Assembly (NCBI GenBank): GCA_964362625.1
Contig: CAYIFA010000001.1
Coordinates: forward strand, 2,994-66,993
DNA from: an uncultured Candidatus Saccharibacteria bacterium
GTDB lineage: Bacteria > Patescibacteriota > Minisyncoccia > 1-14-0-10-42-19
Direction of reading: 5' to 3'
DNA length: 64,000 nucleotides
Below, piece by piece: positions 6,857 through 45,878 of the stretch. The notes under the pieces are model-generated. The model worked only from the letters and a program-made list of their open reading frames with translations. It searched no databases and was not told the DNA's origin. A program made the position numbers and the translations under genes. The first letter of the stretch is position 1. Each line of letters opens with the position of its first letter.

Positions 6857-7570
6857 CTAGATGTTTTTCAACGCGCGCTCGGCTAAAGACCAATCTTCCG
6901 GTTCATCAACATCAACGGCATATTTTGCATCTATTATATATGGCGCCACATGCTCACCGAAAAAATTAGGTTCGGTTTCATCAAATATAAAATGAGTTTT
7001 TAACAAATAAATGGAAGTATTATTCCAATATGCTTTTGGCACAGCTTGACGCGGAACGATTCTATTTCTTACCGGATTGCCGTTGAAAAGCTGGAGCCCG
7101 CCTTTTTCATTGACTACCATCGCGCGGTGCGGACTAAAATGAACCGGCATTTCCGAAATTCCCAGGACCGAATCAGCGCCGCTATTTAAAAATAATTCTA
7201 CTGCCTCCTTGATGTGAAAATCCTGACGCAATGGCGAAGTCGGTTGCAGAATCATTACCGCATCCGGCCCATAGTTTTCATTCTCTGCGAGCCACTTGAG
7301 CGCATGTTGAACCACCGGCATGGTTGGCGTATCGTCTTTGGCCAGTTCGGCCGGCCGCATAAACGGGACTTCACAGCCATTTTGCTTAGCAACTTTCGCA
7401 ATAGCCTCATCGTCAGTAGTTAAAATAATCCGGTCAAGTGAAGCGGATTTTTTCGCGGCCTCAATGGTATAAACAACAAGGGGCTTTCCGGAGAGTAATT
7501 TTATGTTTTTACCCGGGATACCTTTTGATCCACCGCGCGCAGTGATAATGCCCAAAATTTTAGGATTCAT
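6857..7570 (-). CDS. Acylneuraminate cytidylyltransferase (CMP-NulO synthetase) family, paralog 1
   Basis: It has the ITARGGSKGIPGKN N-terminal motif and the PTSPLR motif, both typical of CMP-NeuAc and CMP-KDO synthetases. Confidence 0.85.
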   Translation of the reverse strand: MNPKILGIITARGGSKGIPGKNIKLLSGKPLVVYTIEAAKKSASLDRIILTTDDEAIAKVAKQNGCEVPFMRPAELAKDDTPTMPVVQHALKWLAENENYGPDAVMILQPTSPLRQDFHIKEAVELFLNSGADSVLGISEMPVHFSPHRAMVVNEKGGLQLFNGNPVRNRIVPRQAVPKAYWNNTSIYLLKTHFIFDETEPNFFGEHVAPYIIDAKYAVDVDEPEDWSLAERALKNI

Positions 7571-8900: not shown

Positions 8901-10085
8901 TTACTTTTTCGCGAACTCTCGCAGGGTGCTGACAATCGCGCGGAGCGCGACGCCTTTTTCTGTTGGTTTTGGATAAAGCTGTTCTTGCTTTACCCTAAGT
9001 TCGCGGCACAAGACATTTCTCTGTTCTAGCAAATCAATAACGCTGTTAGCGATATATTGCGGTTCACCGCCAACATAGGAGGTAACTCCTTCTTCGACCA
9101 ATTCCCACTTGCCGCCAGAAACGCCCTTGAGTCGGACGCTTGTGGTAACATTTAAAAGGCTGATGACCGGCTTACGCTGGCAGACGGCCTCGATTTCAGT
9201 AGTAGAGGCAGGACCTATCAGTAAATCGCAGCCGGGAATCAAATCGGAAATTGAAACCTCTTTTGCTGATATTACTCTCGCCGGAATAGCATTCCATTTC
9301 ATCAATTCTTGATAGGACTTAACTCTGGACATTTCTTCAAAAGCAGTAAAAGTTTTTTCAACTTCTTTTTCATCCAAAGCGCGATTATCAGCATCCCTAT
9401 GCTTCGCGGCGTAATCTTTAATAAAGTTCCGCATACCATCATCCATCTCGACACGATCCCCTGGATGTCGGCTGAAAACCAATTGCCACTTACGTCGCCC
9501 AGTGACCATCCAATCCAAGTTGAAGGCCTCTAAAACACTGCTCCACATCGGCATGGTGATCGCTGATGGCTTATGCCCGACAACCAAAACAAACGTCTCA
9601 TCCAGCCGAATCCCGAGCTTGGCTCGCGACTCTTCGTATGACAGTTTCGGGAAATAAAACTCATCCCACAGCGGATTGCCGGAAGAAATAACTTTTGCTT
9701 TTAGAAAAACTTTCCGCGCCTCTCTGGCTTCCTTTTCACTCAAAACAAAAACAAAACTGGCATCAGCGCGAACACTCTCAAACCAATTACGGTTATGCGC
9801 GCAACCAAAGGTGTCGGCATAAAGTCCGTAAGGAATCCTAGCTTCGCGGGCAGCCATACACGACACAATTTCTTCTCTGGCAGTGTTGGCATTAGCCGAC
9901 ATACCTACCAGTAAAACATCTGCTGACCTTACAGCGGCAACAATCTTATCGTCAAGTACTTCAAGAGCTTTTCCTCTACCCAAAACCGGTATTACGCCGA
10001 ACTTTCCGGTTTCCAACAGCGAATCCCTGACCCTTTCGAACGCCTGCGACGGCGCGATGTCCCTAGCCACCAGCACTGCTCTCAT
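8901..10085 (-). CDS. GT-B fold glycosyltransferase-like protein (TagF/PseG-like), function unknown
   Basis: A Rossmann-like N-terminal half and a C-terminal GT-B motif (GPASTTEIEAVCQRKPVISL) are present, together with VLVVGHKPS and SRHPGD motifs reminiscent of the TagF family. It sits at the head of the neuC operon. Confidence 0.4.
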   Translation of the reverse strand: MRAVLVARDIAPSQAFERVRDSLLETGKFGVIPVLGRGKALEVLDDKIVAAVRSADVLLVGMSANANTAREEIVSCMAAREARIPYGLYADTFGCAHNRNWFESVRADASFVFVLSEKEAREARKVFLKAKVISSGNPLWDEFYFPKLSYEESRAKLGIRLDETFVLVVGHKPSAITMPMWSSVLEAFNLDWMVTGRRKWQLVFSRHPGDRVEMDDGMRNFIKDYAAKHRDADNRALDEKEVEKTFTAFEEMSRVKSYQELMKWNAIPARVISAKEVSISDLIPGCDLLIGPASTTEIEAVCQRKPVISLLNVTTSVRLKGVSGGKWELVEEGVTSYVGGEPQYIANSVIDLLEQRNVLCRELRVKQEQLYPKPTEKGVALRAIVSTLREFAKK

Positions 10086-10187: not shown

Positions 10188-11311
10188 TATCCATAGTAAG
10201 CTTTATTAAGGATTCTCATTACTTCTAAACCGGAGCGGTAAGACAAAGGCGACTCGCAAGGATTAGTTGCTTTAAGCAGTGAATCGTAATGCTGGACTTC
10301 GTAATAAAAATCATCTGGACGGGTTTTAGGGAAAATCTCAACAACCTTCCGATTTTCTGTTTCGTACTTAACAACATCACCAGCCGGGTCGCCATTACAA
10401 TGCCATTCGAGCCAACCTTTTGTCCCTTGAACCCGCGCCCACTTGCGCGGCGGTTTGGTAACGACGTCCTGAGTTACATGCCCCACTCTTCCTTTGTTCA
10501 TCTGCATTATAAAATGGGCAATCCGGTCATATTCCACACGCTGCGATCCGGCTAAATCACTTACTACATTCAATTTACGTACCAAGTCGCAAAGTCCATA
10601 GCTTTCACCCGGCCACCACCATGCCCATGAGGCCAATTTCAGAAACAAATGCAAAGCGTGAGAATGCTCGTTGCCCGCTCCTCCGCCGCGGCGCCAATAG
10701 CCCAGATAGCTATCCTGCAGCCCAGATAGCCACGGATGCGCTTTAAAAGCCCCTTCCCAGTGCTCACGAAATTCAACGTCAATGGTTAAGATCTCACCAA
10801 ACTCTCCGCCATCACCCTTTCTCTCTTCAATCCGATTTTCATTAAGAAGATCGGCAACACGACGAATGCTGTTCGAAACCGCGTGATTGTAACCAACTGT
10901 TACAATCGTATCCGGATACTTTTTCATTTCGGCTTCAAATTCGGCAACACCTGTGAGGTTCGGAGTGCAGAGTGGTTTTTCTAGGTGCAGGAGTCTTGGG
11001 TTTTTCTTGATTTCTTCAATCGCCAGCTTCATCCGCACATCCGGAGGAGTAGTGATCATGATGATATCGAATCTATCAGGAATCGCATCTCCAGTCCTGT
11101 AGTCCTCAAATTGCGATGCGCCGCCAACCCCATCTGACAAAAATAGCCCTATCGTAAGATCAACTATTTGATAGCGGTCACTATAAATCCGGCGAAAACG
11201 ATCCAAAGCGCGTACACTCGTATCTACCACGGAAACCCGCCAGCCCATCCTGCAACACGCTTGCGCCAAATGGATCCCGGCCGAACCAGCCCCGATGATT
11301 TTTACGTTCAC
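10187..11311 (-). CDS. Gfo/Idh/MocA family NAD(P)-dependent sugar oxidoreductase
   Basis: It has a Rossmann motif (MNVKIIGAGSAGIH) and the family EKP motif (LHLEKPLC). Confidence 0.75.
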   Translation of the reverse strand: MNVKIIGAGSAGIHLAQACCRMGWRVSVVDTSVRALDRFRRIYSDRYQIVDLTIGLFLSDGVGGASQFEDYRTGDAIPDRFDIIMITTPPDVRMKLAIEEIKKNPRLLHLEKPLCTPNLTGVAEFEAEMKKYPDTIVTVGYNHAVSNSIRRVADLLNENRIEERKGDGGEFGEILTIDVEFREHWEGAFKAHPWLSGLQDSYLGYWRRGGGAGNEHSHALHLFLKLASWAWWWPGESYGLCDLVRKLNVVSDLAGSQRVEYDRIAHFIMQMNKGRVGHVTQDVVTKPPRKWARVQGTKGWLEWHCNGDPAGDVVKYETENRKVVEIFPKTRPDDFYYEVQHYDSLLKATNPCESPLSYRSGLEVMRILNKAYYG

Positions 11312-12023: not shown

Positions 12024-13568
12024 TTAGTCAAACTGATGCCGGCCCCAGTTTAATAAATAGGTTTTCCTGAAATCCCGCGGGAGCTTTGAAATTGCTTTAT
12101 CGGCATAGTAAGAATCATCGGGATGATTGGTAGTAGAAATTTCTTCAAAAATAACCCCGGTGTCACTGCCGAAAGCATGCACTATGCCGCGCGGCACCCA
12201 CAATGAATCACCCGGTTCCAAAACTTTTTGCCGGTCGTCGATATCAACTTTCATAACCCCGCTTAAAACATGAAAAGTTTCATCTTTTTTCATGTGGTAG
12301 TGCGCCGGGTTATATTGACCGGCTAATTGCACAACAATTTTTTTGGCGTATTCGCGATTAAAACAAGTGATTAAAGTACAGCCGGCTTTATGAAAATTCT
12401 CTACTCCATAATGATGCGAGAGTTCCACTTGAAAATCATGGCCCAATGGAACTTTGGCCGTATTAAGCATGCCCTTTATCGAATGGATGGCGTGATAAAT
12501 TATTTCTTTTTTCTCCGGAACATCCGATCGAGTTATGCCCGCGATGGCCTCTTTCGGCAGATAATCCTTATCAGCCAACATCCCATCCCTCCACCGGCCG
12601 CTTACCAACTGGCCGCCTTGCAAAGGCATGGCAAAAAATACATCCGAGCGGTCAATGATTGTTCCGGCCTCAATCCGGCGTTTGGCGTAAACCCCACGCA
12701 TTAGGGACCTGAGGTCGCTTGCTTCTTCTTCAGAAATGCTTCGCTCACCAGCTTCATGCCCGCATGCCTTAACTGCTTCTTTATACGAGGCGACCCAAGC
12801 GTCCACTTGTTCGGGAGACGCTGAATAAGCGTTCAATTTTATGCCGTCAGCCGGGACTCCAACATGCTTTTCAAAAATCCGCGCGCCTTTAGCGTAAGCA
12901 AGACCGACGAGCGACGTATTTGATGGCTCTTCATGCGTTGAAAAGCCAATAGTCAATCCGGGATAACGGCTGCGTAAAATTCCAATCTGATTTAAATGCG
13001 CTTTATCGTTGGTCATCGGATAAATTGAAACACAGTGCATAAGCGCGAAGTGCACCGCGCGTTTTTGGAAAAAGCTAACGATTTTATCAATATCTTTGAC
13101 CGTAAGTCCGCCGGTTGAAATAATTACCGGCCTGCCGGTATCAGCAACCCGCTCCAACAACGGAAAATCTAGGGCTGAACAGCTGCCGATCTTTATTATC
13201 TCAATACCCAGGCGCATGATGCGGTCAACCGACAGTTCGTCAAACGGCGTGCACATCGAAATCAAGCCGAGTTTTTTTGTTTCGGCGACCAATTCGGCGA
13301 ATTGCTCCTCGCTCATCCGCGTAGATAAAAATCTCGGGATATGCTTAATATCTTTGGACTCGCGGAAATCCGGATGAATAAAAGTATCCAGATCTCGAAA
13401 CTGCAGTTTCACTGCCGCGCGAATATTGTGCCTAGAAGCAATATCGGCCATGGCATTAATAATGCGCTGGCCATGCTCTACCGAACCTTGGTGATTATTG
13501 GCCATTTCGAAGACAAATAGATTTTTGAAATCAAATTGTGGCATGGAAATATTGTAAGATAAGGGCAT
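12024..13568 (-). CDS. NeuB-family synthase, paralog 2, with SAF domain and an extra C-terminal cupin domain
   Basis: A NeuB-like TIM barrel (FVFEMANNHQGS) and a SAF region are present. The C-terminal 150 aa carry cupin motifs (NPAHYHMKKDETFHVLSG ... GDSLWVPRGIVHAF). Total length is 514 aa. Confidence 0.8.
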   Translation of the reverse strand: MPLSYNISMPQFDFKNLFVFEMANNHQGSVEHGQRIINAMADIASRHNIRAAVKLQFRDLDTFIHPDFRESKDIKHIPRFLSTRMSEEQFAELVAETKKLGLISMCTPFDELSVDRIMRLGIEIIKIGSCSALDFPLLERVADTGRPVIISTGGLTVKDIDKIVSFFQKRAVHFALMHCVSIYPMTNDKAHLNQIGILRSRYPGLTIGFSTHEEPSNTSLVGLAYAKGARIFEKHVGVPADGIKLNAYSASPEQVDAWVASYKEAVKACGHEAGERSISEEEASDLRSLMRGVYAKRRIEAGTIIDRSDVFFAMPLQGGQLVSGRWRDGMLADKDYLPKEAIAGITRSDVPEKKEIIYHAIHSIKGMLNTAKVPLGHDFQVELSHHYGVENFHKAGCTLITCFNREYAKKIVVQLAGQYNPAHYHMKKDETFHVLSGVMKVDIDDRQKVLEPGDSLWVPRGIVHAFGSDTGVIFEEISTTNHPDDSYYADKAISKLPRDFRKTYLLNWGRHQFD

Positions 13569-14363: not shown

Positions 14364-16310
14364 TTATTTATAGATGTCCGTTATCCTGTCGGCAATAGAC
14401 AGATAATCTAGCTTGTGATACTTGAGAACCTCGTCATTCAATCCGCAAGCCGGAATTTCCTCTAGGCCATAATTGACTACAATCGGCCCGCCAAGTCTAC
14501 CAAAAATTCCCGAAATATATTCGCCCTGACCGCCCTTAATATAATGGTTATCTAATGTAAAAACAATTTCGGCATGATCAAACGTATCGTTGATCCAATC
14601 AGCATCAATGCGATTTAGCCAAGGAATGTTGAATACTGATAAGCTGTAATCAGTAAGTTCCTGAACACGCTTCGCGGCCTTTACTGCTTCAGTAAGCATT
14701 AACGGACCGTAGGCAATGATGTAAGCAAAGGAGGAGCCATTGTCACCTTTATACACGCATACGCCTTGTCCAGGCCTTAGCTGATAGTCGGGAGGGAGCC
14801 CGTAAGGCAAGTCCAAAGGAACATTAACAAATCGGATATAAGTGCTGTCCGGATTATTTTCAACCGCCCAACGAATTGCCATTCGGGCTTCGGCTTCAGA
14901 GGACGGTTCAATTGCCGTAAGCCCGGGCATTGCCGACATACAGGCAATGTCGCGCACTGACTGATGCGAATGTCCGGGACCGCCCGGAATCAAACCGGCC
15001 AGTGTTCCGATATAAATAATCTTGGATTTTTCAGTAGCATTATTGTAAATCTGCTCATTGGCGCGCGGGGTAAGGAAGCAAGCAAACGAATGAACAATCG
15101 GTAGCATGCCTTGTCTGGCAATACCGCCGGCCATGCTAACCATATCCTGTTCGGCAATCCCGCATTCAACAAATCTTTCCGGATGGCTTTTTTTGAATTC
15201 GGCAATCCCACAATCTTTCACCAGATCGGCGTCCAAAACTACAATGTCTTTTCGGTCTTCGGCAATCTTCAAAAGTTCGTCGCCATAAGCCGAAACAAGA
15301 TTCTGGGCTTTAGGAGATGCGGAAACGCGCTTTGGCATATCGCATGTCTCAAATTCCAAAACTATATCGCCTTTGGTCGATGCCCAGATACCTATTTCGA
15401 GTTCTGCAAGCGCGGCGTAATAATCATTATCCGACGGCGCTCCAGCATGATACTTGTAATATTCTTCATCGGCCTTCGGCTCCATAAAAGAGACGCCTTT
15501 ACCTTTGATGGTGTGAGCGATAATTGCTGTTGGGCGTCCGGAAAAAAATTTTGATTCGCGGACTTCTTTCAGAATCGCCGCTAACGACCAGAAGTCGTGC
15601 CCGTCAACTTCAAAGGTATTCCAGCCAAATGCATTGAATTTTTTGGCGATATGGCCAATGTCGCTGACATTTTTAACAAAGGTATCGGATTGCATTTTGT
15701 TGCAATCAACTATGACCGTGATCTCGGTATACCGGTCATTAGCGGTTTTCCCTAGTGATTCCCAAATCTGGCCCTCTTGCAATTCGCCGTCTCCGGTCAA
15801 AACGTAAATCCTTCCTCGCGTCCCTTGCATTCTTCGCGCGTAAGCCATGCCCCGCGCTTTTGAAACGCCCATACCAAGTGATCCGGTATTGGTTGCGATG
15901 AACGGAGTGCCGACATCCGGATGACCGGGCAGGCCGCCGATGCGACGAAGTTTGTGAACAAACTCATACGGAATATGTTCTCTTCCGATTAAAACTGAAT
16001 ATAAACCGGGAACATCGTGGCCTTTTGAAGAAAAGAATACATCAGAATGTGGCGGATCAATTTTCAAGTCATGATCAAATTCTTGATTCGGCGAATTCAT
16101 CTCCCTTTCCCACAACCAAGTTACTATATCCATCGCGCTGAAACTCGTCCCGATATGACCGGAACCGGCTTCCTTGATCATAGAAAGGGTATTTAAGCGA
16201 TATATATCGGCCAGCACTCTCATTCGTGCAAACGCATCGCCCGTAACCCATGAGCGAACCTTCCTGATTTGCTCAAGCGGCACAAAATAGAGTTTTCCTT
16301 TTTCAAACAT
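14364..16310 (-). CDS. tkt: Transketolase (full-length, TPP-dependent)
   Basis: A GSGHIGTSFSAMD TPP motif, a GDGELQEGQIWE motif, a pyrimidine-binding domain and a C-terminal domain are present. Length is 648 aa. Confidence 0.85.
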   Translation of the reverse strand: MFEKGKLYFVPLEQIRKVRSWVTGDAFARMRVLADIYRLNTLSMIKEAGSGHIGTSFSAMDIVTWLWEREMNSPNQEFDHDLKIDPPHSDVFFSSKGHDVPGLYSVLIGREHIPYEFVHKLRRIGGLPGHPDVGTPFIATNTGSLGMGVSKARGMAYARRMQGTRGRIYVLTGDGELQEGQIWESLGKTANDRYTEITVIVDCNKMQSDTFVKNVSDIGHIAKKFNAFGWNTFEVDGHDFWSLAAILKEVRESKFFSGRPTAIIAHTIKGKGVSFMEPKADEEYYKYHAGAPSDNDYYAALAELEIGIWASTKGDIVLEFETCDMPKRVSASPKAQNLVSAYGDELLKIAEDRKDIVVLDADLVKDCGIAEFKKSHPERFVECGIAEQDMVSMAGGIARQGMLPIVHSFACFLTPRANEQIYNNATEKSKIIYIGTLAGLIPGGPGHSHQSVRDIACMSAMPGLTAIEPSSEAEARMAIRWAVENNPDSTYIRFVNVPLDLPYGLPPDYQLRPGQGVCVYKGDNGSSFAYIIAYGPLMLTEAVKAAKRVQELTDYSLSVFNIPWLNRIDADWINDTFDHAEIVFTLDNHYIKGGQGEYISGIFGRLGGPIVVNYGLEEIPACGLNDEVLKYHKLDYLSIADRITDIYK

Positions 16311-17550: not shown

Positions 17551-18633
17551 TCAAGACCAAACAATATCTTCGTGCTTTATAACACCATCTTCGGCAATGT
17601 CGGCCTTGGCGGTTTTCCCTACTATCTCGCCAAGCATTCGTGGCTTTAAGCCATAACCCGGGCTTTTGCAGGTGAGCATTTCGGCGGTTATTTTGGCGCC
17701 GGCCGGAATCCGGGTTTTCGCGACAATGCTTTTGGAGTGTTTGTCGCGCGTCGGTTTTTCAACGTCAAAAAGAAACTTGCCGTATTGGCCCATGGCCTTT
17801 TCAATCCGGCGGGTAGACACCACCATGTGCTTGAATTCCACTGGATCAACGCTAACCGTAGCATGATCCGGACCCGGCAGATTTTTATCGAGGGTAATAT
17901 GGCGTTCAACGGTTTTCGCGCCAAGGGTAATTGCGGCAAGTGTCGGCAAAAATCCTTTTTCGTGACCAGAATATCCAATTGGCAGTGGATTATATCGTTC
18001 TCTTAAAAAGGGGATGGTGGCTAAATTCAAATATTCATCCAAGGTCGGGTAAACCGAAACGCAATGTTTTATGATCAGCTGGTTATTATGCTTTAGAATC
18101 GTCTCGACTCCTTCATCTAGCTCCTCCAAAGAATGCATGCCGGTTGATAAAATCATTGGCTTGCCTTTTTTGGCCACATGTTCCAGGAGCGGTAAATTTG
18201 AAACGTCGAATGAAGCAATTTTATAAACATCCATCCCGACTTCTTCCAAGAAATCTGCGCTTTTTTTATCAAATGGAGTCGCGAAAAATATTGTGCCGAG
18301 CTTTTGCGCGTGTTCTTTGAGTTTCAAAAAATTATCCATATCCAACTCCAGGGCCTTCCGATACTCGCCATAGGTTTTGCCGAAAATCTGGTCCTTAGTT
18401 TGTTCTTTATTTTGAAGTTCTTTAGCAAAGACTTCGTCAATAAAACGCTTTTGAAATTTCACCGCATCAGCACCGGCTTTTACCGCCTCTTCAATGGTGC
18501 GTTTCGCCAAGAAATAGTCGCCATTGTGGTTATTCCCGATTTCAGCAATAAAAAATACCGGCTCGCCTTCGCCGACAAAGCGACCTCCAATCTTCACTTT
18601 CCGCGGCAAATCCTTAAATTTGTCTCGCAACAT
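17551..18633 (-). CDS. NeuB-family synthase, paralog 3
   Basis: FFIAEIGNNHNGD and KFQK motifs plus a C-terminal SAF domain are present. Length is 360 aa. Confidence 0.85.
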   Translation of the reverse strand: MLRDKFKDLPRKVKIGGRFVGEGEPVFFIAEIGNNHNGDYFLAKRTIEEAVKAGADAVKFQKRFIDEVFAKELQNKEQTKDQIFGKTYGEYRKALELDMDNFLKLKEHAQKLGTIFFATPFDKKSADFLEEVGMDVYKIASFDVSNLPLLEHVAKKGKPMILSTGMHSLEELDEGVETILKHNNQLIIKHCVSVYPTLDEYLNLATIPFLRERYNPLPIGYSGHEKGFLPTLAAITLGAKTVERHITLDKNLPGPDHATVSVDPVEFKHMVVSTRRIEKAMGQYGKFLFDVEKPTRDKHSKSIVAKTRIPAGAKITAEMLTCKSPGYGLKPRMLGEIVGKTAKADIAEDGVIKHEDIVWS

Positions 18634-18723: not shown

Positions 18724-21567
18724 TCATCGCGCGAGCCATTGGCCGGTATATGATTTTTTGTTTTTGGCAATTTCAGACGGTATCCCGCAAGCTACAACTT
18801 CGCCGCCTTTACTGCCCCCCTCCGGGCCGAGATCAATCAGCCAATCGGCATTGCGCAAAATATCCAAGTTATGCTCAATAACTAAAACAGTGTTACCTTT
18901 ATCAACCAGTGCCGCAAGCACGGTCAAAAGTTTTTGGATGTCATCAAAATGCAAACCGGTGGTGGGCTCATCTAATATATACATTGTTTTACCGGTGGAT
19001 TTTTTGGCCAGCTCCGTCGCCAATTTCACCCGTTGGGCCTCGCCTCCGGAGAGTGTCGTTGCTGATTGCCCGAGTTTCATATAGCCAAGACCGACTTGCA
19101 CAAGGGTCTCTATTTTAATTTTGATTTGCGGAATTTTTTTGAAAAATTCAAGCGACTCCTCGATAGTCATCTCCAAAACTTCGGCGATGTTTTTCCCGTC
19201 GTAATGTATAGACAGGGCCTCGCGATTATAACGGAGTCCAGCACACTCCTCGCACGGCACGTAAATATCCGGCAAAAAATACATTTCTATTTTTTTGACG
19301 CCTTGTCCTTCGCAGGCCTCGCACCGGCCGCCCTTTACGTTAAAACTGAAGCGGCCGGCCTTATAGCCACGGGCTCGCGCGTCATGCGTTTTTGAAAACA
19401 AATCTCGGATCACCGCGAACGCTCCGGTATAGGTTGCCGGATTGGACCTAGGAGTGCGTCCGATCGGCGACTGATCCACCACCACTACTTTATCCAAATT
19501 ATGAACGCCTTCTATTGTTTTGTGCTTGCCCGGCGTTTCTCGCGAGCCGTAAAAATGCTGCATCAATGCCTTGGCTAAAATATCGTTTACCAAAGTTGAC
19601 TTGCCCGATCCGGAGACTCCGGAAACGCAAACCAGCATGCCAAGCGGAATTTCCGCGTCTATATTTTTTAAATTATGTTCGCTCGCCCCGCGTATCTTCA
19701 ACTTGGCTATTTTACTTTTTTCGATTTGCCTGTTTGCAACTTTAACCTCCCTCTTTCCTGAGATATATTCCCCGGTCAAAGTATCCGCCTTCTTCAATTG
19801 CTCGTAAGTGCCCTCAAACACCACGCGGCCGCCATGCCTACCGGCTCCCGGCCCAAGATCCACTATCCAGTCCGCTTCCTCCATTGTTTCTCTATCGTGT
19901 TCAACCACAATGACACTGTTGCCCAGATCCCGAAGCTTCTTTAAGGTGGTAATCAGCCGCGAATGATCCCGCGAATGCAAACCAATGGAAGGTTCGTCCA
20001 AAACATACATTACGCCTGCCAAGCCGGAGCCGATTTGCGTTGCAAGTCGTACCCGCTGGGCCTCCCCTCCGGCAAGCGTAGTTGATTCGCGGTCAAGCGA
20101 GATATAATCCAGCCCGACATCAGTCAAAAATTCCAGACGCCGCGATATTTCTTTAAGCAAAGGTTCGGCGATTTTCGAATTTTCTTTTTCTTTTCTAACT
20201 TCGACGGCGACAGTTTTAATAAATCCGATCGCGCCATCAGAAGATAACCGTGAAACTTCAGCAATGTTTTTCCCGCCCACCGTAACGGCCAGCGCCTCTC
20301 TTTTAAGACGGAGCCCGAGACAATCTGGGCACTCCCGAACATTCATGTAACGTTCTATTTCGGCCCGAGTCCATTCGGAGTCGGTCTCGCGCCACCTGCG
20401 CTCCAGGTTGCCAATCACGCCCTCAAAGCCATCAGGATTATTCGCCCGCTCGCCACGCAAAATCAATTCAAGCATTTTAGGAGAAAGATTTTTTACCGGT
20501 TCATAGAGAGAGAATTTATGGCGTTTGGCCAAATCTTCCATAATCCACCAATACCATGATTGGCGGCCGACCCGATGCGAAGCTCTGGACCATGGCTGGA
20601 TCGCGCCTTCGGCAATGGTAAGATTTTTATTCGGGATGACAAGATCCGGATCAACTTCCAGCTGGTTGCCAAGCCCGGTACAACGCGCGCAGGCCCCGTA
20701 TGGACTGTTAAAAGAAAAAAGCCGCGGTTCTATTGGCGGCAACGAAACATGGCAATTGGGACAAGCGAAATTCTCCGAAAATAATGTTTCCTTTAAAACC
20801 TTCTCCTGATTTTTGAGATCAACTCCGATAACTTGTGCGATACCTCCGGCCAGGGTCAAAGCGGTTTCAAGTGAATCATGAAGCCGCGAGCGCTCAGTGG
20901 ATTTATCGATAATCAGTCTATCCACCACTACTTCAATGGAATGCTTTTTTTTCGGGTCAAGCGGCAAATCAACTGCTTCTTCTATACGCATTACTCCTCC
21001 GTTCATGCGAACTCGCAAATAACCCTGCTTCTGAATACTTTCAAGGATTTTTTTGTGCTCCCCTTTCCGAGATCTGACAACAGGCGCGGCGATCAAGGCA
21101 ATAGTGTCTTTAAAATTTTTGATAACCTGCCAAATCATCTGGTCAATGGTTTGCTTTTTAACGGCACGCCCGCATTCCGGACAGTGCGGCTCACCTACAC
21201 GCGCATAAAGTATCCGGAGATAATCATGTATCTCGGTGATTGTTCCGACAGTAGAGCGAGGATTTTTCGCGATGGAGCGCTGGCTGATGGCAATTGCCGG
21301 AGATAAACCGGATATTTCATCGGCATCCGGTTTGTCCTTAACGCCTAAAAATTGCCGGGCGTAACTGGAAAGCGACTCCACGAATCTGCGTTCGGCTTCA
21401 GCGTAGAGCGTGTCAAAGGCGAGAGATGATTTACCGGATCCGGAAAGCCCAGTTATAACCACCAGCGAGTTACGCGGGATGTCAAGCGATATGTTTTTCA
21501 GATTATGCACCCGCGCTCCTTTGACGCGAATGTAATCATTGGATTCTTTTTTGGAAATACCGGCCAT
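18724..21567 (-). CDS. uvrA: Excinuclease ABC subunit A
   Basis: A 947-aa protein with duplicated ABC ATPase modules, zinc-finger Cys pairs and a UvrA-type N-terminus ([19 protein letters not shown]). Confidence 0.95.
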
Positions 21568-39663: not shown

Positions 39664-40713
39664 TCAAAATGGACCTTTAAAGCGGTGCTCGTAATTATAA
39701 AACTGCTCTCCGGACAAATCAGCTGCTTCTAGGCCAAGTTTCTTCTCAATTACGCGAATGATGTTAATGGCGGTTGGGTAGAAAGCGTCTTCGAGCGGCC
39801 GGGTAGTCGGACAAGGCGTATGCGCAAACCCGATTCGGCTAACCGGCGACTTCAAATGACCAAAGCATTTTTCAGAAACAACAGCCGCAACTTCCGCGCC
39901 AAATCCAAAAGGGACCCAGTCATAATCGGCAACAACACAATGGCCGGTTTTCATAACCGATGTCGTGATAGTTTCTTCATCTAGCGGAGCGATTGTCCGC
40001 GGGTCAACTATTTCAACGCTGACATTGCGCTTGGCTAACACCCGTGCGGCTTCACGCGCTTCCACATTCATCCACGATGTAGCGACAACTGTAACGTCGG
40101 AGCCTTCGCAGAGAATCTTAGCTTGGCTTAACGATTCAACATATGGTTCCTCCGGTACTTCGCCTTCCTGCCAATAAAGCCAACGATGCTCAAAAAACAA
40201 AACCGGATTATCGTCGCGGATGGCAGAAATCAATAATCCTTTGGCGTCATATGAGGTGGTCGGCATTACTACTTTCAATCCGGGTATATGCGCAAAAACA
40301 GAGTGCATCGTCTTGGAGTGCTGGAAGCCCTGCCCCCAACCGCGACCGATCATCGACCGGATGACTATTGGAACTTTTAATCTTCCGCCGGATCCATACC
40401 GAAGGCTCGAAACCATATTGGCGAGCTGATTCATGGCCAGCAGAAGAAAATCCGCTCGGATGTGGACATTAATCGGACGAAAACCATTTATGGCAGCGCC
40501 CAAACCAAAACCAAGCAAACTATCTTCGGCGAGCGGGGTAGAGAAACACCGGTTTACGCCGAAACGTTCACTCAATCCCAAAGTGCTTCCGTAAGTACCC
40601 TTATGATCATCAACATCTATGCCGTAAACGAAGATTTTCGGATCTCGTTCCATTTCCTGGATATGCGCTTCACGGATCGCCTCACAAAATGTTATGACAC
40701 GCTGGTTAGTCAC
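39664..40713 (-). CDS. TPP-dependent 2-oxoacid dehydrogenase E1 beta subunit-like (transketolase C-terminal/pyrimidine-binding)
   Basis: A 349-aa protein of E1-beta/transketolase-C architecture. It overlaps the alpha-like gene by 8 nt. Confidence 0.8.
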   Translation of the reverse strand: MTNQRVITFCEAIREAHIQEMERDPKIFVYGIDVDDHKGTYGSTLGLSERFGVNRCFSTPLAEDSLLGFGLGAAINGFRPINVHIRADFLLLAMNQLANMVSSLRYGSGGRLKVPIVIRSMIGRGWGQGFQHSKTMHSVFAHIPGLKVVMPTTSYDAKGLLISAIRDDNPVLFFEHRWLYWQEGEVPEEPYVESLSQAKILCEGSDVTVVATSWMNVEAREAARVLAKRNVSVEIVDPRTIAPLDEETITTSVMKTGHCVVADYDWVPFGFGAEVAAVVSEKCFGHLKSPVSRIGFAHTPCPTTRPLEDAFYPTAINIIRVIEKKLGLEAADLSGEQFYNYEHRFKGPF

Positions 40714-41677
40714 AAAGCACCCCTTTTCTTAATTCAGAGGCATCCGGATAGTTGGCAGATTTGGCAGCTTCTATGCTGTTCCGGATTTGTTCATCAATCT
40801 CTTCTTTAAGATCCAGCAATTCTCCTTCTGTAATTCCATACGCGAGCAATTTAACAAACTGTAAATAAAGCGGATCTCGTTCTAACCACTTTCCAAATTC
40901 ATGTCTGGTCCGGTATCCGGCCCGAAAATCTTCGCCTATGCCAACATGTTCAAGATAACGATAGTAACGTAAATGCATAAAGTAGGGCCTTTCGGTTTGA
41001 CGCATAAAGCGCAATGCACCCAGAGCCGCCAAATAAATCGTTTCGGCATCAGTTGTTTCGGAAGAAAAAATTCCGCATTGAAAACGAGACACGATATCGG
41101 TAATTGAATTGTAACCGTGGCGTTTTGCCGCCGGGATATGAACGGCTAATCCGTTATCCTCGCATACAAACAAAACCGGCAATTTCATGAGAGTAGCGAT
41201 ATTTAACGATTCCCAGAAATTTCCCTCGTCAATCGCGCCATCGCCGAAAAATACCGCGGAAACATTGCCATTGCCCTCCTGTTTTTTGGCAAAAGCCGCA
41301 CCAACCGCCACTGGAATTGTGCTCGCCACTACTGCCGAAACTACCATTAAGCCATGATTTGGCGCCGAAAGATGCATAGAGCCAGCTTTACCTTGGGCCA
41401 TACCGGTAACTTTCCCGTACATTTCGGCAAAAAACTTGTCGGTTTCCATGGTTTTAGCCAGATATAAAGCATGACTGCGATAAGTTCCGAACACCTGATC
41501 GCCGGGCCTTAACGCCTGGCACACACCGGCTGAAATCGCTTCCGATCCCATCGACATATGCATTGGCGTTTTCATTTCATCCTCGGGATAATGCTTAATG
41601 ATTGCCTCCTCGGCTTTACGAATAAGATAAATTCTTCGATAAAGCTCAAGACTAGTCTTCCGGTCAACTAACATCAT
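40706..41677 (-). CDS. TPP-dependent 2-oxoacid dehydrogenase E1 alpha subunit-like
   Basis: A GDGAIDEGNFWESLN TPP-binding motif is present. Length is 323 aa. Confidence 0.8.
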   Translation of the reverse strand: MMLVDRKTSLELYRRIYLIRKAEEAIIKHYPEDEMKTPMHMSMGSEAISAGVCQALRPGDQVFGTYRSHALYLAKTMETDKFFAEMYGKVTGMAQGKAGSMHLSAPNHGLMVVSAVVASTIPVAVGAAFAKKQEGNGNVSAVFFGDGAIDEGNFWESLNIATLMKLPVLFVCEDNGLAVHIPAAKRHGYNSITDIVSRFQCGIFSSETTDAETIYLAALGALRFMRQTERPYFMHLRYYRYLEHVGIGEDFRAGYRTRHEFGKWLERDPLYLQFVKLLAYGITEGELLDLKEEIDEQIRNSIEAAKSANYPDASELRKGVLCD

Positions 41678-41866
41678 CCGGCTCCTTTCGTGTCCGTCTA
41701 TTCCAAATTATTTCAAAGGCCGCTTATTCTGTTATTGATACTATCAACGCCGAGATTAATGTCAATATTTAATGGTTCGAACCTGCATGCAATTATAAAT
41801 TCAAACAGCAATAAAACCCCCTAAGCAGGCGGTCCTTATTGCACGGAACCAAAATGCCTAAAAAAA

Positions 41867-42262
41867 CTATGGCCCCCAATAAATACTTGAATTTCGTAAT
41901 GACCCGTCACTATTTACCTTCATTTTTATGACTACCGGTGAAGTATCGTCTTTGTCTCCCGGCCTTATTTCTTTTCTCTCAGTAAACCATCTACCGTAAT
42001 TTGCAGAACGATTCGGTTTATATCTCCCTCGAATTTCATACAGCGTAGAACCGTCTTCGTGTTCAAACTCTCTATAGCCTTCTAATATAAAAGTTGAAGC
42101 TTTTGCTTTATCGGAAGCAAGTTCTTTAATTACCGGGTCTTTTATTGAATGTGGCAGGCCATCAATACTCGCCTCCCACTTCCATTCTACGTTTGAAATA
42201 CTTTCAGGTTTTCTAACATCACCACCAGCTTCATCGTCATTATAAAAACCTTCTTTACTCAT
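41867..42262 (-). CDS. Hypothetical protein
   Basis: A 131-aa ORF inside an AT-rich insert. No recognisable motif was found. Confidence 0.3.
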   Translation of the reverse strand: MSKEGFYNDDEAGGDVRKPESISNVEWKWEASIDGLPHSIKDPVIKELASDKAKASTFILEGYREFEHEDGSTLYEIRGRYKPNRSANYGRWFTERKEIRPGDKDDTSPVVIKMKVNSDGSLRNSSIYWGP

Positions 42263-42495
42263 GTTGGGCTATATATAACCAATAAAAATTATTTTATGTC
42301 ATTTTGAACTCGTTATCAACTCCGAATTGTGGATAATGTTAAAGCCGCCATCCAATGACAAAATGAACATGCCGATGTTATCGCACCACTCTCTATGCAA
42401 TATCCGATATTGCACAACATTGATAGAGCCACTGCGGTTTGTTTTCGCACAAAAAGCGGCCTGTGTTAAGCCGCTTTCGTTTTAATAGACGGAGT

Positions 42496-42594
42496 TTATC
42501 CGGCATAATACTCGCGCCAGTATTCGAGAAGGTCCGAAAGGGTTTGCTCAAACGGAATTGTCGGCTGCCAGCCGGTTTGATTGAAAAACTTCAT
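42496..42594 (-). pseudogene. 3' remnant of a GDP-mannose 4,6-dehydratase gene (duplicate of the 3' end of gmd at 43823..44803)
   Basis: About 135 nt (42466..42597) are roughly 95% identical to 43792..43923. The reverse strand encodes MKFFNQTGWQPTIPFEQTLSDLLEYWREYYAG followed by a stop, the same as the Gmd C-terminus. It is followed by part of the same terminator hairpin. Confidence 0.6.
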
Positions 42595-42613
42595 GGTACT
42601 TCGCTTCAACTCA

Positions 42614-43150
42614 TTAATACAAATGCTCCTGAACGAATGGAATAAGAGCTGACACAACCGCATGGCGATAAAGTTCTGTACGATCTATAACGCCCTTTGT
42701 TAGCAAGCCGATTGCACCCATATTTTGTTTTGAATTATTTTGCCTAAATACTATATCACTTGCGTCTCCGACTTCCTTACCATCTTCTAACACAAGTTTA
42801 CGGAAAATTGGTGGGGCAAGAAAAGTACATGTTTTCCCTTTGCCGACTTTTCCTTCTTTAGATTCAACGACAATCCACGCAAATTCGTGAAGCTCATTAT
42901 TCACATCTTCAACTCCACCCTCAAGACCGACATAAAAATCTGCTCCGGGAGAAATTCTTCTTGCGTCAGCCACTCGATTGATTGCTCCTTTAAGCGTTTC
43001 CCTATCAGAAAGCGGCTGGTCTGAAATGCCAGATGAAGCTTTCACGCTACCGAATTCAAATCGGGTTTCTGGAAAAACAGAACTAAATGCGCGTCTGACG
43101 GTTTCAATCTTAACAGGATTTATTGAAGCTATAATGACAATCTTATCCAT
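42614..43150 (-). CDS. yjjX: Inosine/xanthosine triphosphatase (non-canonical purine NTP phosphatase, YjjX family)
   Basis: It is collinear with YjjX (NPVKIETVRRAF, VANARR, ADFYVGLEGG, GAIGLLTKGVIDRTELYRHAVVSALIPF). Confidence 0.8.
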   Translation of the reverse strand: MDKIVIIASINPVKIETVRRAFSSVFPETRFEFGSVKASSGISDQPLSDRETLKGAINRVADARRISPGADFYVGLEGGVEDVNNELHEFAWIVVESKEGKVGKGKTCTFLAPPIFRKLVLEDGKEVGDASDIVFRQNNSKQNMGAIGLLTKGVIDRTELYRHAVVSALIPFVQEHLY

Positions 43151-43415
43151 AAAGTTCTACTCCTGCTGAATTAATACTATTCATTAGGATACTTTATAAA
43201 AATATCCGAGCTAAATAAAATTTAAGTTCAATTGTTCTTACTCCAGTATAATAGAACACTGGGCTTTATCTAGTGTTTTATCATTGCTTTGGATTGCGGA
43301 CGACACTAGAACCATTATCCAGCAACAAAATGAATATATCTACATAACTAACCTGAGAGAGCGTTCCAACGCATAAACCTATCTCAACCGGCCGTTCACT
43401 ATTCCTCCAGCTGTA

Positions 43416-43444
43416 TTGCATCTATGTGGCATTTTTGCTAAAAT
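43416..43444 (+). promoter_or_regulatory. Putative sigma70-type promoter (TTGCAT, 17-nt spacer, TAAAAT)
   Basis: The hexamers and spacing lie about 35 nt upstream of the small ORF start and are followed by a strong RBS. Confidence 0.4.
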
Positions 43445-43477
43445 ATGGTGAATTGCCAAAAACAAAGGAGGGTTGCG

Positions 43478-43675
43478 ATGTCCAAAAAATCTTTCCTAGA
43501 TTGTCCTCATAAAAATGTTCAGGAATTTAGTGAATGCTGTCTCGATTGCGGTTATAATATTTACACCACTAAAGAACAATACCTCAAAGACTTGAGACAG
43601 GAAGCTATCCGTAAAGGGATTGATAAAGATACGCAACAAATCCGTGATTTGGAGAAAAAATTAGGCATAGAATAA
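43478..43675 (+). CDS. Small hypothetical protein with a Cys-rich zinc-ribbon-like motif
   Basis: Upstream signals are a GGAGG RBS 7 nt before the ATG and a sigma70-like promoter TTGCAT-17-TAAAAT. The protein carries a CPHKN...CCLDCG motif. Confidence 0.4.
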   Translation: MSKKSFLDCPHKNVQEFSECCLDCGYNIYTTKEQYLKDLRQEAIRKGIDKDTQQIRDLEKKLGIE

Positions 43676-43775
43676 TTCTTTTTACAAACATAATCGGCTT
43701 GACTTCGTTCAAGCTGATTTCTTTTTTCATACCATTAAATGAAGGCGGATTTGCCTCAGTTTGTATTAACATAGA

Positions 43776-43812
43776 AAAAACGGCTTATTTGGTTAAGCCG
43801 CTTTCATTTTAA
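43776..43812 (-). terminator. Rho-independent terminator downstream of gmd
   Basis: aaaaaa precedes a stem (cggctta-tttggt-taagccg) followed by ctttcatttt. Its 3' half is included in the duplicated segment at 42466..42484. Confidence 0.6.
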
Positions 43813-43822
43813 AATACAAGTT

Positions 43823-44803
43823 TTATCCGGCATAATACTCGCGCCAGTATTCGAGAAGGTCCGAAAGGGTTTGCTCAAACGGAATTGTCGGCTGCCAGCC
43901 GGTTTGATTAAAAAACTTCTCGGAGGATGGAATCTGCATTGAAACATCTGATGGACGTAATCTTTTTGGATCGACTTCGACCCGAATATCATTTCTTAAA
44001 GACAACGCCAAAAGCTTACCCAACATATCGCCGACAGTCATCGTAACATTGCCGCCGATGTTATAAACTTCGCCGGCTTCGCATTTTTCGGTCAAGACCC
44101 AGTAAGCCCGGACTGCATCGCGGACATCCATGAAAGTTCTGACGCTTCTAAGGTTGCCGACTTTCACAATGGGCTCTTCTTGCAAACCGGCTTCAATCGC
44201 CGCTATCTGCTTGGCAAAGGATGATTCCACAAAAACCTCGCCGCGGCGCGGACCGGTATGAGTAAACATCCTGGAGCGTATAGTTTTAATCTCCCAGCTG
44301 GTCCAATACTGAAAAGCCAGCATGTCTTCGGCCACCTTGCTTACGGCGTAAGGAGAGGCCGGACGAAACGGGTTTTCTTCGGTAATGGGGATTTCGTCTT
44401 CGCGCACCTGACCGTACACTTCCGAGCTGCTGCAAACATGAACAATCGGATCATAATCCGAAGACTGTTTAACGCCCTTGATTACCTCAAGCAAATTACA
44501 GGTTCCGATGACGTTTACGTCGAGAGTTGCCGTGGGATAGATAAAGCTAGCATCAACGTAAGATTGAGCGGCCAAATGAAATATTTTTTTAGGCCGCCAA
44601 GTATCGAGCACCCTTTTTAGTGAACCGGGGTCCGTTAGGTCGCCGTATTCTAATGTCAAAGAATTAAGAATATGCCGGATGTTATTTTTAGGAGAACGCC
44701 AGCGCACAAGCCCAATAATTTTAACTTCCGGATTATGCGCTACAATATAATCCGCCAGATGACTGCCGACGAATCCGGTAATGCCGGTAATTAGCACATT
44801 CAC
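43823..44803 (-). CDS. gmd: GDP-mannose 4,6-dehydratase
   Basis: It has the Rossmann motif ITGITGFVGSHL, a catalytic YxxxK (YAVSKVAED), and the Gmd-type motif RMFTHTGPRRGEVFV. Confidence 0.85.
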   Translation of the reverse strand: MNVLITGITGFVGSHLADYIVAHNPEVKIIGLVRWRSPKNNIRHILNSLTLEYGDLTDPGSLKRVLDTWRPKKIFHLAAQSYVDASFIYPTATLDVNVIGTCNLLEVIKGVKQSSDYDPIVHVCSSSEVYGQVREDEIPITEENPFRPASPYAVSKVAEDMLAFQYWTSWEIKTIRSRMFTHTGPRRGEVFVESSFAKQIAAIEAGLQEEPIVKVGNLRSVRTFMDVRDAVRAYWVLTEKCEAGEVYNIGGNVTMTVGDMLGKLLALSLRNDIRVEVDPKRLRPSDVSMQIPSSEKFFNQTGWQPTIPFEQTLSDLLEYWREYYAG

Positions 44804-44885: not shown

Positions 44886-45878
44886 TCAAGTCTCTTGAGT
44901 TTTATATATTATCTGGCTGCCGCTTTTATCGAAATCAAAATCAACGCGCTGAAATTTCGCGAGGGAAGAAGAAATTTTAGGATGAAGTTCCGGATTGGCA
45001 TACACCAATAAAAATCCTCCGCCGCCAGCACCCAACAGCTTTCCGCCAGTAGCGCCGGCTTTTTTGGCTCTGTCGTATAAACTATCTATCAAGGGGTTAG
45101 AAATTTTTGAGGCAAGAGTGCGTTTAATTCGCCAGCTTTCATCAAGCAGGCGACCGAATTCATCAAAAAAATTATTACCGCTCTTTATAATTTTTTCAGC
45201 TTCGTCGGCAATCGCGAGCATAGCTGTAAGCTCTTTCTCTTTTTTCGGCGTATTAGCGATCTGCTCTTTAGCGATCTCGGAAGCAGTCCGCGGCATGCCA
45301 ATATAAAATAACATCAGGTGACGATTAAGCGCATCGGAGACCGAGTCAGCGATATTTACCGGACTGACGCTAAGGCCATCAGATTTAAATTCAATCACGT
45401 TAAACCCGCCGAAAGCCGCGGCAGTCTGATCTTGCGACCCGACATTCTCTTGAATAATATTTTGCTCAATATGAATCGCGTCATTCGCCAATTTAATTTT
45501 ATCAGTCGGTTGTCCGGTCAAAGCGCATAAAGAATTAAGAAAACCGACCGTAAAAGCGCTTGATGAGCCGAGCCCGCTCCTTGCCGGCCAGTCAGCATTA
45601 TGCTGCATCTCAATACGCTCATTGCCCAAATTCAAATATCGTAAACATTCTCGTACAGACGGATGACGTATTTTAGATAGGTCATTACGCTTTTCTTGAA
45701 AGGTATAACGAATACGATAACGGTAAACAAAAAGCGGAGACAAAAAACGCGTAGTGATATAGCAATACTTGTTAATGGTAGTGCTTATTACCTTGCCGCG
45801 ATTTTGGTTAAACCACACCGGATAATCGGTGCCGCCGCCAAAAAACGATATACGAAACGGAGTTCTAGATATGACCAT
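44886..45878 (-). CDS. GHMP-family sugar kinase (HddA/fucokinase-like)
   Basis: An RISFFGGGTDYP N-terminus and a PARSGLGSSSA GHMP ATP-binding motif are present. Confidence 0.75.
   Translation of the reverse strand: MVISRTPFRISFFGGGTDYPVWFNQNRGKVISTTINKYCYITTRFLSPLFVYRYRIRYTFQEKRNDLSKIRHPSVRECLRYLNLGNERIEMQHNADWPARSGLGSSSAFTVGFLNSLCALTGQPTDKIKLANDAIHIEQNIIQENVGSQDQTAAAFGGFNVIEFKSDGLSVSPVNIADSVSDALNRHLMLFYIGMPRTASEIAKEQIANTPKKEKELTAMLAIADEAEKIIKSGNNFFDEFGRLLDESWRIKRTLASKISNPLIDSLYDRAKKAGATGGKLLGAGGGGFLLVYANPELHPKISSSLAKFQRVDFDFDKSGSQIIYKTQET

Follow-up and report, generated by a model that had tools for sequence, protein, structure and literature searches.

We analysed a 64,000-nucleotide stretch of DNA (the window) from a metagenome-assembled genome (MAG) of Patescibacteria (candidate phyla radiation, CPR), recovered from Hainich groundwater (well H51, 0.1-µm fraction). 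Most of the window is a very large sugar-modification/glycan locus with three NeuB paralogues, several nucleoside diphosphate (NDP)-sugar epimerases/dehydratases, B12-radical-SAM enzymes, a sulfotransferase and thiamine pyrophosphate (TPP)-dependent E1/transketolase-like enzymes; core genes (RNase III, NusB, RNase HII, UvrA) are scattered through it. Here we describe an insert that separates the gene for an NDP-sugar 4,6-dehydratase, for which we use the label gmd, from the gene for a TPP-dependent E1-alpha component, together with a direct repeat of the gmd 3' end that brackets part of this insert (Table 1).

Table 1. Features at the gmd-E1 junction, in window coordinates
Feature	Position	Strand	Details
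E1-alpha (TPP-dependent dehydrogenase E1 component)	40706..41677	-	PF00676 8.4e-47
E1-alpha upstream region (intergenic); left boundary of the lineage-specific insert	41678..41866	-	promoter-like site
orf131, near-orphan, outside the repeat-bracketed segment	41867..42262	-	promoter-like site 42319-42291; no obvious Shine-Dalgarno sequence
Repeat copy A, putatively displaced gmd 3' stump	42451..42592	-	last 30 codons + stop (42496-42592), 18-nt spacer, complete intrinsic terminator (~42451-42480)
yjjX module	42593..43288	-	palindrome-bearing upstream element (43251-43282), promoter and ribosome-binding site (RBS), coding sequence 42614-43150, 21 nt of 3' flank
Linker, yjjX module to small-ORF module	43289..43395	.	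107 nt; no match in window or fetched loci; no Rfam match
Small-ORF module	43396..43737	+	promoter ~43412-43440, RBS AAAGGAGGG, 65-aa coding sequence 43478-43675, own terminator 43692-43719
Linker, small-ORF module to gmd terminator	43738..43774	.	37 nt; L085 homology ends at 43737, gapped repeat begins at 43775
Repeat copy B, in-place gmd 3' end	43775..43919	-	last 30 codons + stop (43823-43919), 18-nt spacer, terminator (43776-43805)
gmd-like NDP-sugar 4,6-dehydratase	43823..44803	-	PF16363 1.2e-77

The insert (41678-43822) has a GC content of 0.386, compared with 0.45 for the window, and a coding density of 53%, in agreement with an earlier reading made from the letters alone (the sequence-only reading), which had described an AT-rich, low-coding-density stretch of about 2.1 kb. 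The GC content of 2-kb bins was 0.41-0.48 except at 42-44 kb (0.39), the lowest of the 32 bins. In six relatives (L005, L007, L014, L084 and L093 among them), gmd is followed by the E1 gene or genes, either directly or past one open reading frame (ORF). E1-alpha and E1-beta follow within ~40-80 nt in L014 and in a Pirellulales MAG (L007), one ORF separates gmd from E1-alpha in a Verrucomicrobiota MAG (L005), the order in L084 is gmd, NUDIX and a fused E1, and a different Patescibacterium from the same Hainich sample (L093) has a 146-nt gap between gmd and a fused E1. The genes of the insert (yjjX, orf131 and a small ORF) are present in none of these gmd-E1 loci. Because gmd is followed by E1 in the relatives without these genes, the 2.1-kb low-GC stretch is a lineage-specific insertion into a conserved gmd-E1 junction; the proposal of an insertion into the glycan locus was to this extent borne out. 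No homologue of the left edge (41678-41866) was found in any fetched locus. The promoter scan placed a promoter-like site there, upstream of E1-alpha (TTGACA-16-TAGTAT, TG-extended, 41765-41738, 10/12 match).

The 3' end of gmd occurs twice. Without gaps, 42465-42592 (copy A) aligned with 43792-43919 (copy B) over 128 nt at 94% identity, with an identical core of 87 nt. Gapped blastn extended the match to 42451-42592 versus 43775-43919 (145 columns, 90% identity, with a 3-nt indel in the loop), so that the repeat spans both halves of the gmd terminator. The copies are in direct orientation at a spacing of 1,327 nt. Copy B completes gmd in frame, and copy A lies on the far side of the cargo, starting 21 nt past the yjjX stop codon. 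The sequence-only reading had noted a copy of the gmd 3' end downstream of yjjX, and this repeat is real. Its right edge had been set at 42597/43923, 4-5 nt beyond the point where homology stops (42592/43919), and only half of the terminator had been included, where the gapped alignment takes in the whole. Both hairpins, each with a T-run, fold well (-15.5 kcal/mol for copy A and -14.5 kcal/mol for copy B). The stem AAAGCGGCTTAAC was found exactly at two places only in the 64 kb, the two repeat copies; a common terminator family or a chance match was therefore rejected.

The two copies did not differ evenly along their length. In the coding part we counted 1 mismatch in 97 nt, a synonymous TTC/TTT difference at 42583, compared with 7 mismatches in 31 ungapped nt plus the loop indel in the non-coding part (Fisher p=1.8e-4). 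Divergence sets in two bases past the stop codon. Each tail differs from that of a sister lineage (L081) at 11-12 of the 97 nt, and the 3' flank of the sister gmd is homologous through terminator B as far as 43781.

We next consider the join between copy A and the yjjX module, at 42592|42593 (J1). The module is 80.4% identical in nucleotide sequence, over 698 nt, to six loci from other metagenomes (L074-L079), and this similarity is limited to 42593-43288; the remainder of these 11-17 kb loci has no similarity to the 64-kb window. Homology with L074, from an aquifer Patescibacterium, extends up to 42593; the adjoining base, 42592, is the last of the gmd repeat. Read on the yjjX strand, the window has ...GAAGCGAAGTACCAT|GAAGTTTTTCAATCAAACC across J1, the L074 continuation is ...GTACCAT|TTGGGAAACGC, and the true gmd is ...CCATCCTCCGA|GAAGTTTTTTAATCAAACC. 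Donor-type ...GTACCAT is thus joined to gmd GAAGTTTTTC, and the native continuations differ on both sides. Because L074 continues with TTGGGAAAC past this point while the true gmd is preceded by CCTCCGA, J1 is a precise, blunt, non-homologous join without usable microhomology (0-1 nt at most). The only candidates for microhomology, a CCAT that is offset and a GAAGT close by, play no part in the join. The insert edge and the repeat edge coincide to the nucleotide, and recombination scar, a term that the sequence-only reading had offered, is a fair description. The expected match between insert boundaries and repeat holds at this one boundary (42593/42592), but not on the orf131 side, where the insert extends beyond the repeat.

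Copy A lies in the 3' untranslated region (UTR) of yjjX, and its terminator is the only one between yjjX and orf131. From this arrangement the yjjX mRNA can be predicted to run through the gmd stump and to end at terminator A. Mechanical ORF calling reports a 55-aa ORF (42496-42663, minus strand) that begins inside yjjX in another frame and reads into the stranded gmd tail, and the junction creates an in-frame ATG (CC-ATG-AAG). We rejected this ORF and its junction ATG as a micro-protein for want of an RBS and a family match. It is likely prone to mis-annotation as a gene. The lesson for annotation is that the stranded gmd tail yields a spurious ORF and at the same time lends its neighbor, yjjX, a terminator.

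The repeat brackets yjjX and the small ORF only (42593-43774), and orf131 lies outside it. The insert is a mosaic of self-contained single-gene modules (orf131, yjjX and a small zinc-knuckle-like protein). The idea of a single small cassette did not hold up: besides the position of orf131, yjjX and the small ORF are separate modules with their closest relatives in unrelated contexts. The nearest informative relatives are 88-89% identical in nucleotide sequence for gmd and the small ORF and 80% for yjjX, and are found on short contigs. Neither linker, nor the orf131 region, had a nucleotide match in the window or in the fetched loci.

The YjjX protein (178 aa) matched PF01931 over its full length (3.3e-52; 177 bits versus a cutoff of 25; profile positions 1-162 of 162) and TIGR00258 above cutoff (122.9 versus 117.1 bits), and scored just under the cutoff of NF003459 (168.3 versus 175 bits). 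It satisfies the family models as a full-length member of the YjjX/NTPase_I-T (inosine/xanthosine triphosphatase) family, as had been suggested, with predicted hydrolysis of ITP and XTP. The family is widespread in Patescibacteria (636 matches). The closest proteins (90% amino acid identity) are those of L074-L079, from several other metagenome samples, and a further homologue (P0003) is 84% identical. yjjX is thus not exotic; it is the gmd-E1 unit that also appears in MAGs labelled as other phyla. We considered whether yjjX might be native, with the glycan genes inserted around it. This was rejected on the grounds that L074 shares only the 696-nt module with the window and that gmd-E1 adjacency is conserved even in the co-occurring Patescibacterium (L093).

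The small-ORF module was 89.2% identical over 344 nt to a sister-lineage contig (L085) whose flanking genes are unrelated and which comes from the same sample as the sister gmd with 94% identity. The encoded protein had been taken for a Cys-rich orphan; we found 31 homologues, in which C9, P10, H11, C21 and C24 (C-P-H...C-x-x-C) are invariant within the motif SFLDCPHxNVQ...CLDCG. The module had also been credited with a strong promoter and RBS of its own. The RBS is clear, but the promoter has an extended -10 and a weak -35 element (TTGCAT-17-TGcTAAAAT) and was not called by a simple promoter scan. Its 31 nt are identical in L085. The terminator of the module folds at -13.6 kcal/mol (z=-5.6).

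Evidence for recombination in the neighborhood came from the sister lineage. Scans of genome and metagenome contigs returned no gmd closer than 71% amino acid identity other than the source contig, and a protein search found relatives of 94% identity, only on contigs of 1.3-1.8 kb. In the sister (L081), the same kinase gene precedes gmd, and downstream come a gmd terminator particular to the sister and a different gene (99 aa) with its own promoter; in both lineages, what comes after gmd is therefore variable. The window gmd is 88.6% identical to the sister over the aligned region (~12% diverged), with most 90-nt windows at 82-89%. However, a tract of 282 nt (44424-44705) has no mismatch to L081 and one mismatch to L082 and L083, which indicates recent homologous recombination between lineages. 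Upstream of gmd lies a GHMP-kinase gene (44886-45878, minus strand). At the 3' end of this gene (44923-44964), strain contigs from two replicate Hainich assemblies (L001 and L002) show 8 single-nucleotide polymorphisms (SNPs) relative to the window within 42 nt and almost none elsewhere, and at 7 of the 8 sites they carry the sister (L081) allele. This segment is a short tract of imported sequence that segregates among the Hainich strains. Judging from these tracts, short-tract homologous exchange is active in gmd and the neighboring kinase gene.

We propose, with a probability of about one half, that the duplication of the gmd tail is a scar left by displacement-type recombination. The incoming DNA would have combined a gmd 3' end and its terminator (copy B) with the small ORF and yjjX as cargo, and homology on the gmd side would have kept it in register. 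The far end of this DNA would have been joined illegitimately within the resident gmd, 30 codons short of the stop codon, at J1, so that the resident tail, together with its terminator (copy A), became stranded downstream, beside orf131 and E1-alpha. In its present position in the yjjX 3' UTR, copy A would terminate yjjX transcription and insulate orf131. The outcome would be that of homology-facilitated illegitimate recombination (HFIR), equivalent to the 'C-terminal displacement' of rhs and type VI secretion system (T6SS) effector loci. The non-coding parts of the two copies differ as diverged alleles might be expected to, which is consistent with this proposal. As to the anchor, the 282-nt tract shows homologous exchange within the gene, not the particular crossover of the insertion event.

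Several points weigh against a displacement. It assumes natural transformation or competence in an uncultured Patescibacterium. There is no genome in the 'before' state, as the contigs of the nearest gmd relative (94% amino acid identity) end ~480 nt past gmd; because of this, we infer the order of events and which copy is resident, as we do the homologous anchor and whether yjjX and the small ORF arrived jointly or stepwise. A donor with gmd, small ORF and yjjX contiguous was not found among the relatives. Because these occur in three different places in the closest relatives, at least two steps or an already mosaic donor would be needed. Moreover, for alleles from two lineages the non-coding divergence predicts ~6-8 coding mismatches, and 1 was seen (Poisson p ~0.004). 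Because the coding mismatches are too few, and because neither two diverged alleles nor a fresh duplication fits alone, a further step that homogenised the coding part must be added, for which heteroduplex repair at the anchor and later gene conversion are the candidates.

Alternatively, the modules could have been inserted singly past the gmd terminator, after which a local template switch or slipped duplication copied the tail and terminator beyond yjjX; gene conversion would later have preserved identity in the coding part and left the non-coding part to drift. We consider such an intragenomic origin rather unlikely. It would account for copies in direct orientation only 1.3 kb apart, for their nearly identical coding parts and for breakpoints that adjoin hairpins, and short conversion tracts are evidently frequent in the locus. 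However, a fresh local duplicate should be uniform, and the concentration of mismatches in the non-coding part is not what a simple recent duplication would produce. Nor does a conversion tract with arbitrary ends predict a switch from identity to divergence at the stop codon, and there is no evident function of copy A to explain constraint on its coding part alone. A slightly less probable route starts from a small circle with a gmd 3' fragment (as attP or homology patch), the small ORF and yjjX, whose Campbell-type or site-specific integration would leave attL/attR-like direct repeats and an integrase-less remnant able to loop out through them. Direct repeats of a target gene 3' end around cargo are the classical signature of 3'-end integrating elements, and the repeat is identical gene-proximally and diverged distally, like a core plus arms. 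A Logan contig (L004, window 42553-43909) of 1,357 nt, equal to the repeat spacing plus 30, has the same 30-mer at both ends and closes on itself. Such a loop in the assembly graph arises from a chromosomal direct repeat as well as from an excised circle, and was set aside as uninformative. The circle would explain propagation, but not how a circle bearing a gmd fragment arose, and a cargo that is itself mosaic, with its two modules found separately elsewhere, fits it poorly. At 1.3 kb the segment is too small for an autonomous replicon, and the 2.1-kb insert had no blastn match in phage and plasmid collections; nor did orf131, the small ORF or yjjX match PHROGs. No integrase or recombinase was found in the 1.2-kb segment or among the 47 window ORFs of the Pfam scan, which included all those within 15 kb either side of the insert (a further 10 ORFs with 150 aa or more, located at 24-26 kb and 57-64 kb, lay outside it). 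Searching for contigs with the identical gmd protein returned insert-bearing ones only, and no empty site or alternative arrangement. Because no tRNA or tmRNA was found in the window, a tRNA-type att site is excluded. Rfam gave no match at 41-45 kb (E<=1) or, at the gathering threshold, in the whole window.

A target-site duplication, another origin raised by the sequence-only reading, would require staggered cleavage by a yjjX-carrying transposon, and the yjjX of L074 does adjoin a Y1 (IS200/RAYT-like) transposase, between two copies of a palindromic element. Transposon target-site duplications are exact, ~2-14 bp long, and flank an element with defined ends. The repeat, at 128-145 nt, is far longer and imperfect; of the two ends of the segment, just one matches the L074 unit, and terminal inverted repeats are lacking at 42593/43774. 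The bracketed segment has no ORFs other than yjjX and the 65-aa protein, and no inverted repeat pairs its ends; no transposase was detected in the scanned ORFs and no Y1 homologue in the window. IS200/IS605-type elements are not known to make target-site duplications. This explanation is effectively refuted. A mis-join at a short repeat, which the sequence-only reading had named as an alternative, is conceivable in a short-read metagenome assembly, where the 87-nt identical core could confuse a de Bruijn graph, and both ends of the Logan contig fall within the repeat. However, contigs of three replicate assemblies (L001, L002 and L003) span both copies in the identical arrangement at 99.8-100% identity to the window, L001 and L002 representing slightly different strains, and the identical YjjX and gmd proteins are present on Hainich contigs of all three. 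The copies also have distinct flanks and distinct spacer and terminator sequences, and both terminators fold properly. Its recurrence in three independently made replicate assemblies shows that the repeat is no artefact of assembly, and we regard a mis-join as very improbable. We also doubt, more strongly than for the circle, that the 1.3-kb segment is a still-active integrase-less mini-cassette and that ultra-small Patescibacteria swap promoter-gene-terminator modules between genomes, with gene-tail/terminator homology patches or REP-like palindromes serving as handles for recombination. If true, this would be a form of cassette shuffling distinct from integrons and transposons, and could explain many small context-free genes in Patescibacteria genomes.

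A displacement-type scar can be compared with several known systems. HFIR has been described in Acinetobacter, Pseudomonas stutzeri and Streptococcus pneumoniae and also in E. coli conjugation (PMC3240628). As in HFIR, foreign DNA without homology to the recipient site has one illegitimate joint, here blunt, with little or no microhomology, and one homologous anchor, here inferred, with short-tract exchange documented in gmd; the foreign DNA is absent from the site in six relatives. In contrast to HFIR, the present case is known from its end product alone, with the anchor crossover unmapped, and part of the anchor is duplicated instead of the more usual deletion. C-terminal displacement is known from rhs, contact-dependent inhibition (CDI) and T6SS effector-immunity loci (Kirchberger et al. 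2017, PMC5361080, where Jackson et al. 2009 is cited as a source), and a stranded 3' end downstream of new cargo has been described for other loci (PMC5361080, PMC3240628). The gmd locus shares with these the arrival of a new 3' end plus cargo via a conserved upstream gene part and the retention of the old 3' end as an orphan stump. It differs in that gmd is a sugar dehydratase with an invariant tail and not a polymorphic toxin, so that old and new tails encode the same peptide and the protein gains no variant. A housekeeping-type gene and a small uncharacterised gene make up the cargo in place of immunity genes, and there is a single stump, not an array.

In integrative elements at gene 3' ends and their integrase-less derivatives (cis-mobilisable elements, CIMEs), direct repeats of the target 3' end bracket the insert. 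The same holds here, with gmd left intact. However, no integrase was found in the scanned ORFs, no att core or arm sites were recognisable, the cargo is a 1.2-kb mosaic, and no excised or empty form occurs among the contigs with the exact gmd protein. Integron cassettes end in an attC site, lack promoters and share one orientation, with IntI and attI nearby. The present modules bring promoters and terminators of their own and lie in divergent orientation; again no integrase was found. The yjjX module resembles REP/RAYT systems in that it begins with a palindrome of a family repeated in L074, there beside a Y1 transposase with a HUH-like motif. In contrast to such systems, the window contains just one copy, which is degenerate, and lacks a Y1 transposase; the palindrome also resembles a plain bidirectional terminator, and no link to the gmd repeat was found. 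The features that define transposons, integrons and integrase-bearing islands were looked for and are absent, and the scar belongs to none of these families.

The kind of event, a recombination scar, is already known and fairly ordinary; the instance is new, in a poorly studied phylum, and involves no new element or mechanism. To a specialist it may appear tidy more than surprising. CPR bacteria are uncultured, and their gene-flow mechanisms are known almost solely by inference. The locus provides a clean, nucleotide-resolved case of foreign single-gene modules entering an operon in such a bacterium. The scar, the mosaic modules and the short identical tracts in gmd indicate frequent recombination with diverged DNA in the glycan locus, which fits DNA uptake as a major route of CPR genome change.

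The palindrome upstream of yjjX (43251-43282, GATAAAACAC..GTGTT(C/T)TAT) occurs once in the window, in degenerate form, and four times in the 16.6 kb of L074. The family (GATAAAACAC...GTGTTTTAT) has conserved flanks and in L074 brackets yjjX on both sides at a spacing of 719 nt. A single copy is what is expected for DNA imported from a genome where the element is common. The L074 repeats are intergenic (7246-7277, 9860-9931, 10579-10650 and 15017-15093) and have the form TCGGGAGCAACGATAAAACAC-hairpin-GTGTTTTATyTTAC...GGAC..CGAACCTA. Together with yjjX they adjoin a 224-aa Y1/RAYT-like transposase with 21-nt inverted repeats, and this repeat family and the Y1 protein may constitute a REP/RAYT-type system in CPR bacteria. 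An attC-like reading of the window palindrome was rejected on consensus, as by inspection it shares only AAC/GTT triplets with R''/R'.

Members of the small-ORF family have a zinc-knuckle-like motif and a C-terminal helix ending in LGI, and occur in varied contexts (L086, L090, L092). One is encoded on an IMG/VR viral contig (L092), and another on a contig that is phage-like by gene content, with NAMPT and NAD kinase as neighbors (L090).

orf131 had been called an orphan. It had no Pfam, PHROG or NCBIfam match, but is better described as a near-orphan: a search of 1.84 billion representatives gave three matches, namely itself, a giant protein with fibronectin type III (fn3) repeats and one convincing homologue, the C-terminus of P0274 (38% over residues 11-128, E=1.3e-10). 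P0274 (362 aa) has a long charged N-terminal region, and the orf131-like part is its C-terminal 113 residues. orf131 may be a stand-alone copy of this C-terminal domain.

The gmd product scored 167 bits on TIGR01472, below the equivalog cutoff of 415, with similar scores on the dTDP-glucose dehydratase and LegB models. It is safer to describe it as an NDP-sugar 4,6-dehydratase of the GDP_Man_Dehyd Pfam family, with its substrate and nucleotide sugar uncertain. The dehydratase gene and, after it, split or fused genes for TPP-dependent E1 alpha/beta form a conserved unit (window 39664-44803; also L005, L007, L014, L084 and L093), often joined by NUDIX and methyltransferase genes, that occurs in MAGs labelled Verrucomicrobiota, Pirellulales and Patescibacteria. 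The unit probably makes a branched or C-acylated sugar.

The glycan locus as a whole (window 1-64000) is unusually large for a small-genome CPR bacterium. The three NeuB-family synthases are encoded at 4918-5928, 12024-13568 and 17551-18633, and uvrA (18724-21567) sits in the middle of the locus. Further genes encode two CMP-transferases, two B12-radical-SAM enzymes, a HemN-like radical SAM protein, PhyH, an APS-kinase and a sulfotransferase.

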